DNA of 64,000 nt. Source: an uncultured Methanosarcinales archaeon (GTDB lineage: Archaea; Halobacteriota; Methanosarcinia; Methanotrichales; Methanotrichaceae). Numbering within the stretch: the stretch's first letter is position 1; each line of letters opens with the position of its first letter. The DNA lies in the NCBI GenBank assembly GCA_963843555.1, contig CAWJKV010000005.1, positions 289,849-353,848 on the forward strand. Reading direction: 5' to 3'. Positions 48,001-54,000 of this stretch are shown here, piece after piece. The position numbers are program-made.

Positions 48001-51000
48001 TGGATATCGCTTATGTGGGAACTGCGCCACCCATTTCTGCCATATCGGCGGGACTGCCGGCCAAGATCGTGGCTGCGGTCAACATCAACGGTTCCAATCT
48101 GGTCCTCAGCCCGGATCTGGTCTACAATGGACCCGCATCTTTGGTCGGCCTTTCCATCGGCACGTTCCCACCCGGATCGATTCAGGATACAGTCCTGAAG
48201 AATTGGCTCGAAGAAAACGGGGTGGATGTCTCTCAGGTTGATATCAAAGCTATGGACCCGGGACCTGCCATGAGTGCGCTGTCGGCAGGCAAAATAGATG
48301 GGGTCTTCCTCCCGCATCCATCGCCATCCATAATTGAGCTGAACGGCAAGGGCGTAGGGGCAGTAGCTTCGGGCGAGATGTGGCCGAACCATGCCTGTTG
48401 CAGTCTGGTAGTCACTGACAAACTCATCAAAGAGCAGCCGGAACTGGTAGAGCAGATCATAAAGACTCATATCAAGGCGACCGACTACATCAATGCTCAT
48501 CCTGATGAGGCCGCACAGATATACGCCAAGAGGACCAGAGCGAACATCACGGAAATTGAGCATTCCGTCGAGAACTGGGATGGCAAGTGGATCAGCGATC
48601 CGCGTATTCAGGTGCCTTCGACCCTCGAATACGCAAAAATCGACTACGATATGAAGTACATCGAGAACGAGCTGACCGCGGAGGATCTCTTCGATACCAG
48701 TCTCTACGAGAGGGCAAAAGGTGCTGAGGAAAGCGAGTAAGATCTCGAATGTCCTGAGAAATCAGGGCATTTCCGTTCTTTCCATTTTTGGATTGATCGT
48801 TATCTGGCAGACGGCTGCCTTTCTGGTCAATGACCCATTGATACTTCCCAGTTTTTCCCAGGTTGTTGCTGCTTTTATGGAAAACTGGCGGTCAATTCTC
48901 ACCGAGGACCTGCCGGTCAGCTCACTTCACTTCGCCATTGGCATGGTGGGTGGTATGTTAGTTGCTCTGCCCGTTGGAATGATGATGGGATGGTTCAAGC
49001 TTTTTGACAATATTTTGGACCCCATCGTGGAGATATTGCGCCCCATACCCCCATTGGCCTGGATCCCATTTGCCATTATCTGGTTTGGCATAACAAATGC
49101 TGCAGCAGGTTTCATTATCTTCATGGGGGCGGTGTTTCCCATACTGATCAATACCTATGTGGGTTTTAAGAGCCTGCCGCGCCTGTATGTCGAATCTGCA
49201 AAAGTTTTGGGTGCAACTAAAGATATCGATCTGATAAGGTATGTCGCTCTGCCTTTCGCCCTGCCATCCATCGCGGCAGGCATAAGGATTGCCATGGGAA
49301 TTGCCTGGATGTGTCTTGTGGCTGCCGAAATGTTCGGGGTAAGCAAGAACGGCCTGGGATTTAAGATCTGGGACTCTTACGGCCACTATCGGATGGATGA
49401 GGTATTGATGTACATGATTGTCCTGGGTCTGCTGGGCCTGGCCATAGATCGCACCTTCCGCTATGTGGTGGAGGACAGGATGCTGAAGTGGCGGGTGGGA
49501 CTCACGCAATAGTTTTTCTAAATTTTAAAAAAATTATCTTTTTTCGACTAACTGCATCACGAAGTGCAAAGCAAGCGCAAGCAAGTGCAAAGCCTTAATA
49601 TGACAAGGGAATTCACCATAGGCCATAGATTCGTAATATCGTCATATCTGAGGAAAGGTTATGAAGAGAAATATCAAGGTTGAACGCCTCAATCAAAGAC
49701 CGTTGGAGCAACAGGAGATAGAGCTGGTAGAGCGCAAGGGCATAGGCCACCCGGATAGCGTTGCAGACGGCCTCGCGGAGTCCATCAGCCGGGCTCTGTG
49801 CCAGGAATACCTTGATAGATTCGGGGCGGTGCTGCACCACAACACCGATAAGACTCAGATCGTGGCAGGAAGATCCAAACCCGCCTTTGGCGGCGGTGAG
49901 GTCATCTGCCCCCTTTACATTTTGCTCACCGGGCGCGCCACGAGAGTCTTCAAAGAGGAGGAGATTCCTGTGGACACTATCGCCATCAAAGCGGCGCGTA
50001 AGCTCCTGGCGGAGTCGCTCTCCAATTTGGATGTCAATAACCATGTTATCCTTGATGCCAAGATAGGCATGGGATCCTCAGATCTGCGAGATGTCTTCGG
50101 CCGGAAGGTTCCCTCTGCTAACGACACCTCCTTCGGCGTTGGATATGCGCCACTCTCCGAGACGGAGAATATAGTCTTCAACACAGAGCGAGAGCTCATG
50201 AGGCTCAAAAAGAGCATCCCGGCCATCGGAGAGGACATCAAGGTTATGGGCATGCGCCAGGGAGACGTCATCAATCTCACCATCGCCTGCGCCATGGTCG
50301 ACAAGCATGTGGCAAACCTCAAGGAATATGCGGATACGAAGAGGGACATCGTTGAACATGTCATTGAGTATGCCAAGCAGTTTACTGCCCGCAAGGTAAA
50401 TGCGCAGATGAACGTTGCCGACAATATCGAACAGGGATCGGTCTACATCACAGTCACGGGCACCTCGGCAGAGATGGGAGACGATGGAGCTGTGGGCCGC
50501 GGCAACCGTGCCAATGGACTCATCACCCCCAACAGGCCCATGAGCCTGGAGGCTACCTGCGGTAAGAACCCCATCAATCACGTGGGCAAGATCTACAACC
50601 TGCTCTCCATTGAGGCGGCAAGACAGATCGCAGCCGACGTTCAGGGCATTGACGAGGTCTACATTAAGATTCTCTCTCAGATCGGCAAGCCCATCGACGA
50701 GCCGCACATTGCCAGCGTGCAGATCGTTCCCAAAGAGGGCGTGGACTTGAAGACGGTGGAAGCGGGAGCCATCGAGATCCTGGACGAGTGGCTGGCCAGC
50801 ATTCCCAAGCTGCAGCAGATGCTGTTCCGGGGAGAGCTCAGCACCTACTGAGTTCTCTTTTTTATATAAATTTTATTATAAAAATATTCCTTTTGTTCAA
50901 TCCCCGGGTTTGCTAATCGAGGCTTAATGAAAAGGAGGGAGGCAAAAGTCTCGGGTGTAGGAGGGAGAAAAGAGACCATCGACCTTTGCCTATTCTATAT

Positions 51001-54000
51001 ACAACAATTGCCGACATATAAAGATTTGGTTTTCGGCAAGATGCCCTGATAGGCAAGACAATTGACCGTTTAAGAATAGGAATCGAGTCTCAGGCGGCCA
51101 ATAATCGCAGGCTCAAAAAAATTGTTCCATTCCAAATCATGGCCTCTGGTCTTTCATCATCATCCTGCTTATCTCCCAGGGGCGGCTGGCCTGCGCGCAC
51201 GCTTCCCTCTCGCTCGCCCTGCGCCCGAGCCCGCGTGCCACTAAGCCAGGCAGAACCGCCCAGGAGATCGGCACGGCCGTTGAGGTCTTCTTGCTACTGC
51301 TTCATTTGCGATGATGCGACGAAGATGATTTCGTGGGATAGTTCGATGCAGCCAACTACCCCCTTTCTGAATGGCTTATTTCATCTTTTAGCCGCACCAG
51401 GAATTTTTCTGCATCTTTGATTGTCTCACGGGCTTCATCCTCGGAGATTTCACGTGAAATGGAGTAATCGGCCTCTGATCGGAGTTCCTCCGCAATCCTC
51501 AGGGCTCTGCCATAGTACCGTTCAATAAGACCCGTATCGATAAACTCCTGGCCAAAGCGGGCGATGAGGCCTTTGTGGGTCTTTACTCGAATCTTTCTAG
51601 TGAGAAATAATGCAACGGTTGAAAAATACATGCTGTAATAAGCTCTGCTCACGGCATCGTCATAAAATCCTTCTTTCATGAGATGGCGTGCAACATCGAG
51701 CCTCTTTTCTGCCTCAGAGAGAAGCTGTGTAACTTCGACATCAGGCAATTTTCACCCCCTCAGAGAGGACATTGCTAAAAAAGGAGAAGGTCTTCCTGGC
51801 CTCGAAGTCATTTTTAGAGAAAACCTTCACCGATATGTCCACTCCCGTTTCCAGAAGAATATCAAAGGCTATGCTGATCAGTTCTCGTCGCAACCGGAAA
51901 TCTTCTTTGTCTACTATTACGAGCAGATCGATATCCGAGTCGGGCCTGGCAGTTCCTCTTGCAACAGAGCCAAACAGTGTGACACTCTCGATTCGTTCTC
52001 CGTGAGCCTGGTATGCTCTTTTCACAAATAGATCTAGGGCTTTTTGCCTATCGAAATCCATTGACTTTCCTCGGACTTCTCATGAAGGGCGGATAATTTT
52101 CAGATTCAAAATAAGAAATGCGGCTGAAAAGTTATAACTTTTGCTCATAAGAAGCTTAAGTATATCATGATTTTATTCCCGATTCGCTTTCTTCTTTGGC
52201 GGTATCCTGGCCGGACGAATCTGCGGACCCACAAGCGGCTGGAGATAATCGAGGAACGGCTTCATGGCAGCAAAGACCGCCATTGCATAGTCGGCAAAAT
52301 CAGGGCTGAGCACTTCCTTGTCGCTGAGCGAATGATGAACCATGAACTGTTTGTGCCGGATCAATTCGATTTCGGGATCGTCGATGGCATATCCTCGCGG
52401 CGCTGTCTTGAGTTTTTCGCCGGAGATGCCGCCGAAATATCTCTGGAAAGCTGGGGCCTCCATCACTCTTTTGATCTTGGCGGGATCATTGGCGATGGAG
52501 GAGCGGATGGCCTGCAGGTCAGAGGATGTCGGCATGTGGGCGCCGCCGGCGATCAATGAGCCACCATCGGGCATGATATGAATGTAATAGGGCAGCCGCA
52601 GAGAGTGCTTGCCGCCAGGCGCGAGCACGGCTGAGAAGTGGTTCTTGTAGGGAGGCATATTCCTGGCAAAGCGCAGGTTGTTATTGATGCGGAAGATGGC
52701 GTCCCTGGCCGTCAGATCGCCCAGGGGCTCGATGGAGTCGAAGCGGAGGATCAGGCCCTGGATGAAGTCCTCAAAGATCATTTTGGCCTGATCGTATTCA
52801 GGACGATGCGTTTCGAACCATTCGTGGTTATTGTTCTGGCGAAGAGTACGCAGAAAATCGAAGATCGGCTGGAATTGAGGCATGTGAATAGATTATGCTC
52901 TCAAGCTTTAGATAATTTTCACTTCATGCGAGAGGATGGTGGCAGGAGAAGTACATGTTTCTAATAACATATATCATATAACTTCCATTTCCTAATTCGT
53001 CAAAAAAATTAAAAGTCAAACAATGACTTCTGTCTCCTCCCCGCCTCAGGCTCTGGCCTCCGTCTTCTCTGCTTTCGCCTCTTCCTCTACTTTACGCGGC
53101 CTGCCCCTCTTGCGGGCCTCAGGCTTAGTGGCAATTGCATCCTGGCAGGGCTCGTTCTTCGCCAGAGCTGGCTCCACTGGGTCGAGCCCGATCGTCTGGA
53201 GCAGAGTGCGGGCTCGGATTGGCCTCGAGGTTATCAGATAACAGCACTTGGTGCGTCTTCCTGCACAGCAGTTTCATCTCCTTGCTCGCCACGCTCGCAT
53301 CCGCATCGCCAGCGCGCGCAGGCTGACGGCGACAGCACCAGCGAGCGAATGCTGCGCTGTGCTATGCCAGGCCAGCTCGATATCCTCGATCTCTTCAGCG
53401 GTCCGTATCTTCAGGGCTTCCTCGAAGATGCTCTGCACCTTCTTCGTAGTAGGAGCGCTGCCCAGGAGCAGAGCGATCTCCTCCACCTCCAGATCCAGCT
53501 CTGCCGCCAGCGGGGCGGCTCTCTTCTTGTCTTTGAGGAGCAGCCCCACAAAGCCCATCAGCTCCGACCGGGCGAAGCTCGCCGAGACATGGCAGTGTCT
53601 GCCTATCTTTTTGGCGGCGGAATCTCGAATGCTGCGCGCCTTGCGGGTCTGCCCCATCCTGCGCCAGAGGCTGGGCGGCCGGAAAGCTATGTAGCCATGG
53701 CCGCGTGCCCCCTTCGCGGCCTGCACTCCTCCCGTCATGAGAAAGCTGGCATAGCGCCACAGACCATATACCTGCCTGCGTCGCACCCGACCCAGAAAGA
53801 TGTCCGCCCGCGCCAGGCGATCGTAACCCCAGAATAGATCCAAACCTCTGTATGCCAGGGGCAGGTTCTCGTCCACCCAGTTGATCAGGTCTTCCGGGCT
53901 CTCATCCAGAGCATAAGAAGCCTGTAGTGCCTCCTGTGCGTTGTTGCCCTTAAAAATAACCTCTAAAACCTTGAAGACGGACGACTTGACGTCGCGCTCG

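Follow-up and report, generated by a model that had tools for sequence, protein, structure and literature searches.

The window analysed here, a 64,000-nt stretch of contig C5 from an uncultured archaeon of the family Methanotrichaceae (source genome G000), carries on its minus strand, at positions 50927-51031, a unit that recurs elsewhere in the same genome, and the question it raises is what such a unit encodes and on what it might act. Archaea of the Methanothrix type are among the main converters of acetate to methane, and our literature search found no sRNA described for them; archaeal sRNAs with known targets are few, according to the account in PMC5867862. An initial annotation had read the unit as one of eight copies of a ~75-nt RNA gene restricted to the Methanotrichaceae, the RNA mimicking the 3' end of 16S rRNA. 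We consider it likely, on the sequence comparisons set out below, that every unit is an independent gene encoding a trans-acting sRNA of ~65 nt whose loop would block initiation at matched mRNA starts.

Copies of the Unit in the Source Genome

Searches with nhmmer and with an RNA-only model recovered all eight copies previously listed, with the same contig coordinates and strands: C5:340775-340879(-), which is the window copy, C14:45523-45628(-), C5:124142-124248(+), C6:71854-71960(+), C12:52835-52936(+), C10:121141-121239(+), C4:104580-104688(-) and C16:78688-78793(-). In the source genome these score 66-92 bits with nhmmer (next match, 24.5) and 66.6-83.9 bits with the RNA-only model (next match, 19.9). 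All eight are real, but the total is 10, with two more divergent copies at C10:2062 and C2:269189. A same-strand gene follows closely (58 nt) on the 3' side of only one of the 10, and same-strand genes on the 5' side end 120-941 nt away. A HEPN/nucleotidyltransferase pair lies 366 nt upstream of the window copy.

Promoter and Operator-like Sites

Each feature of the window copy described here and below lies on the minus strand. A BRE-like element at 51023..51029 (CCAAATC in the window; CGAAA in the family consensus, from column counts over 86 homologs retrieved with the RNA-only model) precedes a TATA box at 51016..51022, which stands 5' of the first G of the stem. The first T of the TATA box falls 29-33 nt from this G in 77 of 81 RNA-only-model matches, and 29-32 nt from it in all nine source-genome copies examined; the promoter was absent from the search model, yet is conserved among its matches. 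In a related methanogen, TATA boxes are placed at -23 to -30 (supplement to PMC5378194). RNA polymerase would, from this spacing, start at or just before the first stem G, and the unit has the predicted promoter of its own, in an intergenic position, that is expected of a trans-acting anti-Shine-Dalgarno (anti-SD) sRNA gene.

Between the TATA box and the predicted start site, at 51002..51013, stands a degenerate palindrome, CGNC-N4-GNCG (operator 1), whose start, in 78 of 86 homologs, lies 23-24 nt 5' of the first stem G, and which scores above 7 bits with its matrix in 71 of 77 copies. The palindrome of the initial annotation is real in this degenerate form, but its exact version, CGGCAATTGCCG, occurs only once in the source genome (in the C12 copy), the window copy having CGGCAATTGTTG. 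Considered as a hairpin, it is without covariation (77.6% paired, with 420 of 500 shuffles equally high); we read it as a DNA site upstream of, and outside, the RNA, and as a putative operator. A second operator-like site, at 50980..50991, lies roughly two helical turns from operator 1, where it overlaps the 5' stem arm together with the predicted start; the matrix trained on operator 1 scores it above 7 bits in 37 of 77 copies, a result that holds for the family rather than for the window copy singly, against 0, 0 and 1 of 77 in control windows and a genome background of 5e-4 per position. Some copies have a third such site 5' of the BRE. A single putative regulator may serve all copies, binding between TATA box and start, over the start, and sometimes at the third site; the operator position suggests that it would be a repressor.

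One DUF1699 paralog has the same promoter and operator as the sRNA units, and one clade of DUF1699 paralogs has the operator; the operator is missing in most DUF1699 paralogs. Of 81 copies, 6 have a DUF1699 gene no farther than 1.5 kb away. DUF1699 was considered as the regulator and set aside: a fold search gave no match, the helix-turn-helix signal was weak and below the cut-off (E 0.01-0.04, in 1 of 20 members), and a search for literature on DUF1699 as a regulator returned nothing relevant.

A Fixed Stem with a Variable Loop

The predicted sRNA, ~65 nt, occupies 50926..50990, its ends being placed by promoter spacing, the published TATA distance and the fold. As the RNA most likely begins at the stem, a length of ~60-70 nt is predicted and the palindrome falls outside it; of the ~75-nt RNA proposed earlier, the small RNA gene is thus retained and the length and the included palindrome are not. 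The transcript would fold into a constant 10-bp stem that leaves its CU-rich loop and tail open, a fold supported by the pattern of substitution. The 5' arm (50981..50990) is paired in 98.4% of 580 cells, against 34-59% in slid controls; the 3' arm (50941..50950) is defined by pairing and substitution counts. Between them lies a CU-rich loop of 30 nt (50951..50980), the variable guide region, with the anti-SD motif UCUCCCUCCUAC at 50968-50957, and the single-stranded tail (50926..50940) carries a second CCCUCC and a U-run at the probable 3' end.

Counts over 88 distinct copies uphold what was first claimed: a stem of 10 bp, a loop and a tail that are both CU-rich, and a bias toward G·U. The CCCUCC motifs hold up too, being present in the loop of 65 and the tail of 59. 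Each unit has one hairpin with a loop of 25-50 nt; across the 88 copies stems are fixed and loops G-poor (8.7% G), and 54 of them have a T-rich stretch no more than 26 nt from the stem. The loop of the C14 paralog is predicted to be open. Among 880 stem cells, 800 are Watson-Crick, 65 G·U, 7 A·C and 8 other, and this excess of G·U over A·C (65:7) points to a ~65-nt RNA folding on the named strand. A shuffle control that had formerly been non-significant is significant when run on a more diverse set of 58 copies, 2 of 500 shuffles reaching the same percentage of paired cells; two-sided stem changes in this set are few (3 pairs, 5 cells). The fold of the window copy is modestly better than its shuffles (z -1.6 to -2.7). 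A conserved structure with an unpaired C-rich anti-SD motif, as expected of trans-acting anti-SD sRNAs, is therefore present.

These features bear on whether a free RNA is made at all. The unit could instead act in DNA or in cis, as a terminator, insulator, operator array or mRNA leader, as its two or three operator-like sites might suggest and as might a hairpin with a U-rich tail that could terminate convergent genes, one of which faces 7 of the 10 source-genome copies. The 65:7 ratio and the arm-specific tolerated changes, however, require a single strand of the named polarity, a separate promoter stands at start-site distance before every copy, and same-strand neighbours are rarely close (see above); we regard this reading as very unlikely.

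The stem is also conserved in sequence, beyond pairing, across two classes, which raises the alternative that the RNA works mainly through a protein, either because the stem, by mimicking the operator, titrates its own regulator or because the C-rich strands sponge an RNA-binding protein such as DUF1699. The match of the operator matrix to the 5' arm in those 37 of 77 copies would fit such a decoy, as would the proximity of DUF1699 genes to some units and the operator shared with one DUF1699 clade. A DNA operator over the start site nevertheless accounts for the conservation of the arm with no need for RNA binding, the 13- to 19-nt paralog-specific matches to start regions described below are not what a decoy would predict, and the helix-turn-helix signal of DUF1699 is weak, so that we think this alternative unlikely.

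Distribution among Archaeal Genomes

The RNA-only model detects the unit in 60 of 60 Methanotrichaceae genomes, with 1 to 21 copies per genome and some tandem clusters. It is not confined to that family, as had been proposed: homologs occur in three sister families (32 of 68, 4 of 4 and 2 of 2 genomes) and in a named Methanoperedens record. Single copies are found in both, and most sister-family genomes have just the one, at a conserved locus beside DUF2117 or metallo-beta-lactamase and sodium:solute symporter genes. For the family designated f2 the count is 24, not 25, of 61 genomes, because L253 and L254 lack the stem; L088, without stem and promoter, is excluded from all counts. A loose-pattern scan of named genomes flagged, by a promoter/loop filter, eight of the 80 loci listed, three of which (L114, L145 and L186) are true units with promoter. 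L110, a Methanothrix record, went unflagged by this filter.

With few candidates scored per genome, the unit gave no match in two large-genome genera, g19 (0 of 19 genomes) and g76 (0 of 6), which we infer to be Methanosarcina-like; the stem pattern gave an unrelated short match in two of four g19/g76 genomes and nothing else. In the window, Rfam 15 matched a single tRNA and nothing on the unit; with a limit of E<=1, seven source-genome loci and 16 loci of homologs returned tRNAs and weak, far-subthreshold matches, none on the unit. Rfam includes an LhrC family, and the lack of any Rfam match on the unit gives no indication of homology to LhrC.

Variable copy number and tandem clusters are also what copy-spread of a non-autonomous mobile element, or of the end of a longer repeated element of ~550 nt, would produce, the match to mRNA starts then being a relic. 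The copies at C5:124142 and C6:71854 do stand behind the ~550-nt element, as first reported, and it precedes two or three source-genome copies in all; a scan of IMG/VR gave one true copy among six matches, near a recombinase-like ORF. An obligate tie to the ~550-nt RNA is not supported: in the seven genomes listed in full, just 6 of 48 copies have it no farther than 1.5 kb away. Furthermore, eight copies show no consistent terminal inverted repeat or target-site duplication of the kind that defines a MITE (best 4-7 nt, in varying places), the sister-family locus is conserved and mostly single-copy, and the amino-acid-kinase/NUDIX neighbours of one paralog are kept in both G000 and G022. Synteny largely refutes the mobile-element reading, which we judge highly improbable.

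Complementarity to mRNA Start Regions

If the unit is a trans-acting sRNA gene, its loop would seed on GGAGG or GGGAG ribosome-binding sites (RBS) and extend over the spacer and AUG, thereby blocking initiation. Masking of RBS by multicopy, self-standing sRNA genes had been proposed, and complementarity now supports it for one subfamily, expression and repression themselves being predictions from sequence. The loop of the C14 copy can pair perfectly over 19 and 18 nt across the SD and AUG of two paralogous secreted-protein genes, one of them at C5:117258, the 19-nt match being the top of 2253 start regions in G000; only four of these 2253 SD-bearing windows match any of 10 loops over at least 13 nt. 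The same two genes rank first and second for the C14 and C12 copies, and second and fourth for the C4 copy. Conserved complementarity to an unlinked mRNA start, a further feature of trans-acting anti-SD sRNAs, is thus found in one subfamily.

Comparable own-genome matches of 13-19 nt occur in 8 of 11 genomes and five of six genera, a count to be read with the target family having been chosen after the fact in G000, the g1 genomes being non-independent and the matching paralogs possibly sharing one ancestral event. The best match is 19, 14, 18 and 14 nt in the g1 genomes and, with the canonical anti-SD making up 7-8 nt of each, 13 nt in g4, 14 in g13, 13 in g6 and 14 in g9; motif-preserving shuffles give p 0-0.012 for these matches, and control start regions (MC1, DUF1699) in eight genomes match over 6-9 nt. 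In genus g8, the secreted-target match of both G022 and G008 is just 7 nt (p 0.6-0.7), and G033, with only two loops parsed, a match of 9 nt. The g1 target GGGAAAGAA faces loops with UUCUUUCCC, whereas in g6 and g9 the target GGGAACG(A) faces loops with (U)CGUUCCC; at the level of sequence, this is a natural compensatory change.

Loops appear to have diverged among paralogs, one subfamily fitting the start of this secreted family, while the commonest loop type, to which the window copy belongs, probably targets a number of mRNAs bearing AGGAGGG(A). No start region in G000 stands out as a target of the window copy, and the best target matches of the single-copy f2 form are 8-12 nt long. MC1, a 13-nt match in G000, was rejected as a conserved target, the match being lost in other genomes. 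A plain mimic of 16S rRNA is not supported, on two counts: the 16S end is GAUCACCUCCU, but CACCUCC is found in just 4 of 88 copies, and loop pairing reaches past the SD over spacer and AUG.

A loop directed against start sites also bears on the proposal of a cis-antisense RNA, similar to a type I antitoxin, directed at a small peptide encoded by the opposite strand. On that strand, 31 of 88 copies show an ATG after GGAG, and the HEPN/nucleotidyltransferase pair is near the window copy; such a loop, however, necessarily gives an SD and ATG on the opposite strand, the ATG is missing in 57 of 88 copies, so that no conserved small ORF of the type I kind is seen, and alignments inspected by eye revealed no common frame or opposite-strand promoter. 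We hold this to be the least probable of the readings considered.

The candidate target of the trans-acting sRNA is a conserved, secreted beta-sheet protein family of ~242 aa, without match in Pfam, NCBIfam, PDB sequences or the Atlas. It is modelled as a signal helix followed by one long antiparallel sheet, for which a fold search gave no clear match (best Z 6.7). Its identity with the sheath protein MspA is unsupported because MspA is 60.9 kDa (PMC6242892).

A wider scenario can be offered only tentatively, and we think it improbable: an old, class-wide programmable scaffold, with fixed promoter, operator and stem and a swappable guide loop, would have expanded to ~5-20 copies in the Methanotrichaceae with paralogs retargeted to particular mRNAs, among them that of the secreted beta-sheet protein, which may be a cell-envelope polymer. 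The regulator would be a DUF1699 protein that binds its own promoter, those of the sRNAs and perhaps the RNA stem as well, so completing a feedback circuit. The named target, the natural compensatory change and the shared operator make the mechanism directly testable. First leads are also provided on two uncharacterised families, DUF1699 and the highly conserved secreted protein, and the single-copy sister lineages illustrate how a multicopy sRNA family may expand and retarget.

Comparison with Known sRNA Systems

Sequence and analogy suggest a new multicopy anti-SD sRNA family, acting like LhrC or sRNA41. LhrC1-5 of Listeria monocytogenes are described as multicopy sRNAs with one regulator and redundant CU-rich sites that block translation of a cell-surface protein mRNA (PMC4132741); in contrast to the bacterial LhrC of that description, the present family has one hairpin with a long loop, a promoter of archaeal type, and paralog-specific loops able to pair perfectly over as many as 19 nt. 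The intergenic methanogen sRNAs sRNA41, sRNA154 and sRNA162 of Methanosarcina mazei are likewise said to mask RBS, with sRNA41 and sRNA154 as precedents and an anti-RBS loop reported for sRNA154 (PMC5867862); a shallow search gave no match to the present unit in g19 and g76, the putatively Methanosarcina-like genera. Nine "cold-box" sRNAs of Methanolobus psychrophilus R15 also form a multicopy archaeal group with a common upstream motif, whereas the probes in Table S2 lack such a stem, and our stem and loop words have 0 occurrences in the supplement text (PMC5378194).

Cuckoo/CcsR/alpha-r14 of Alphaproteobacteria resemble the family in being multicopy with an anti-SD C-rich loop (PMC4615179, PMC8034643). 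As characterized in PMC4615179, cuckoo RNAs have 2-4 adjacent hairpins with variable stems and a fixed CCUCCUCCC loop in each, an arrangement not found here, where one fixed stem bears a variable loop. By the same accounts, CcsR is cut from an mRNA 3' UTR, whereas the present copies each have their own promoter, and the linked small DUF gene is DUF1127 in the alphaproteobacterial RNAs and DUF1699 in the present family.

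Copies of the unit and their setting

The unit (promoter, operator palindrome, 10-bp stem, CU-rich loop and tail), which we read as a small anti-Shine-Dalgarno (SD) RNA gene, lies in the window at 50927..51031 (-), between the end of an AdoMet synthetase gene and, upstream, an ordinary HEPN/nucleotidyltransferase pair (51356-52061, -). All eight copies listed in the initial annotation were recovered with scores far over background; eight is not the total, since a model including the promoter brings in two divergent copies, making ten in this genome (G000). At the window copy, seven G000 loci and 16 homolog loci, Rfam matched nothing on the unit. 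Tandem clusters of 2-4 units, 100-600 nt apart, each with its own promoter, also occur: L036/L042 (G013 C47:86801-87835), L068 (G019 C3:117287-117602), L016 and L034.

Promoter, fold and predicted transcript

A first model was restricted to hairpin and tail, leaving the promoter for an independent check. It matches 60/60 other genomes of the family (16 genera, 1-21 matches per genome), and in 77 of the 81 matches a TATA box starts 29-33 nt ahead of the stem's first G. Set against the -23 to -30 position of TATA in a related methanogen (PMC5378194 supplement), this spacing suggests that transcription begins with the stem or slightly ahead of it, and thus an RNA of about 60-70 nt. The ten stem pairs in 88 distinct copies comprise 800 Watson-Crick, 65 G·U, 7 A·C and 8 other cells, the excess of G·U over A·C fixing the RNA strand. 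Among 58 diverse copies 98.4% of cells are paired, as many as in only 2 of 500 shuffles (slid controls, 34-59%), with two-sided changes at three pairs (5 cells); the window copy folds by itself just modestly better than shuffles. Loops in the 88 copies are 25-50 nt long with 8.7% G, and CCCUCC is present in 65 loops and 59 tails. The copies display a strand-specific fold, repeats, and conservation of promoter and operator, and we infer transcription as a small RNA. A cis module without a free RNA accounts for neither the strand bias nor the promoters.

Operator and DUF1699

The palindrome reported initially is a conserved operator-like site, its exact quoted sequence being found in one copy only. 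Because its position is fixed (78/86 copies) and no covariation as a hairpin was found, it behaves as a DNA site. A matrix trained on the palindrome only, then scored on other parts of the unit, detected the 5' stem arm in 37/77 copies and a site upstream of the BRE in 13/77, versus 0, 0 and 1 in control windows. A regulator would presumably act on this putative operator. An sRNA-type promoter with double operator also precedes a DUF1699 gene (C6:11047-11454 (-); L099:1548-1955); the double site is kept in one paralog clade, from G000, G026, G015 and G003, and in G013 with a weaker upstream site, most other paralogs lacking it. DUF1699 genes are multicopy (2-21) in 58/61 genomes of the class and lie <=1.5 kb from 6/81 copies of the unit. 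The DUF1699 protein is a possible regulator of the units; its helix-turn-helix signal is weak, and fold comparison gave no match. Six further promoter-plus-operator sites in G000 form a candidate regulon (L101, C15:28661; L102, C2:191982; L103, C2:261560; L104, C2:182577; L105, C15:6717; L106, C2:323023). One, with tandem operators, stands before EPSP synthase and others precede secreted-protein genes; one is ~600 nt before a membrane gene that we take to be hdrE.

Complementarity of loops to start regions

Loops display paralog-specific complementarity to predicted start regions. That of the C14 paralog is perfectly antisense, over 19 nt and 18 nt, to the stretch from SD through spacer to AUG in a pair of paralogous genes (C5:117258, C5:115968), which also rank at the top for the C12 and C4 copies; among 2253 SD-bearing start windows, just four match any of the ten G000 loops over 13 nt or more. 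The putative target is an uncharacterised, multicopy secreted protein of about 242 aa, with 70-93% identity among best matches in five genera and a predicted structure of a single long beta-sheet. Database comparisons gave it no name, nor did the excerpted text of a surface-protein study (PMC10470525); identity with sheath protein MspA was not supported.

With loop sets that were partial in some genomes (three loops in G049, four in G017, two in G033, six in G009; 8/10 in G000), own loops matched own secreted-protein start regions over 14, 18 and 14 nt in genus g1 (G036, G049, G017) and 13, 14, 13 and 14 nt in g4, g13, g6 and g9 (p 0-0.012 vs shuffles preserving the C-rich core), with 6-9 nt for control start regions; each match includes the canonical anti-SD, the target family was selected in G000, and related genomes are not independent. 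Neither of the g8 genomes shows such a match (7 nt in each), nor does G033 (9 nt; two loops parsed). The target spacer differs between g1 and g6/g9, and the loops mirror the difference. Such pairing would repress translation starts; a protein decoy is another possibility, compatible with base-pairing. No target stood out for the window-type loop, ACDS epsilon, MtrF, EF-1beta and MC1 ranking high but unremarkably.

By analogy, the RNA probably acts like LhrC (PMC4132741) and sRNA41/sRNA154 (PMC5867862), outside any catalogued family. It differs from cuckoo RNAs (PMC4615179; PMC8034643) and from the nine cold-box sRNAs (PMC5378194). No description of the unit was found in the literature searched, mostly outside subscription journals.

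Distribution

A second model, whose training set included four sequences of family f2, was positive in 74/74 genomes of the family, 4/4 and 2/2 in two sister families, 32/68 in f2 and 0/3 in family f27. A named Ca. Methanoperedens record carries the full unit including the operator, and a family of another class gave weak matches in 3/9 genomes (E 0.0015-0.048), keeping stem core and CCUCCUAC loop; shallow searches of genera g19 and g76 found none. Contrary to the first proposal, the unit is thus not confined to Methanotrichaceae, and its wide distribution indicates an old sRNA family, expanded there. In f2 genomes the unit is mostly present just once, at a locus that is itself conserved; its stem is the same, while its loop is conserved in a different form. 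Several (L500:1490-1570, L521, L517, L503) have a conserved gene of ~300 aa, with a weak repressor-like domain at the C-terminus, whose leader contains two GAGGGGAU sites in tandem, spaced by about 33 nt; the f2 loop matches these sites over 8-12 nt, and the gene is a possible target of the single-copy form.

Related elements

A ~550-nt multicopy element of G000 (C5:123544-124090, L002:2445-2995; C6:71265-71817; C5:226485-227033; C12:41113-41644; C14:5677-6201), without Rfam match, has a consensus fold of 146 pairs in ten copies, two-sided changes occurring at 12 of them, and is probably a separate large structured RNA. It often has a DUF1699 gene on one side and the small RNA on the other. 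That the unit itself is a mobile element is unlikely: consistent terminal repeats are missing, synteny is conserved, and the long element is near only 6/48 copies.

Variant units in genus g8 (L441:1501-1602, L442:1501-1590, L444:1501-1594) share this promoter and operator, but their hairpin is short and their C-rich single-stranded tail long. An IMG/VR contig (L532:1450-1570), which may be host DNA, bears a full unit flanked by a TPR gene and a recombinase-like ORF, both named from sequence reading. A tRNA match in the window (38930-39031, +) covers 102 nt, exceeding a plain tRNA; an intron may be present. In f2, hairpins of a different stem with C-rich loops behind TATA-like boxes (L253:1501-1606, L254:1501-1631) are possibly a second anti-SD sRNA family.
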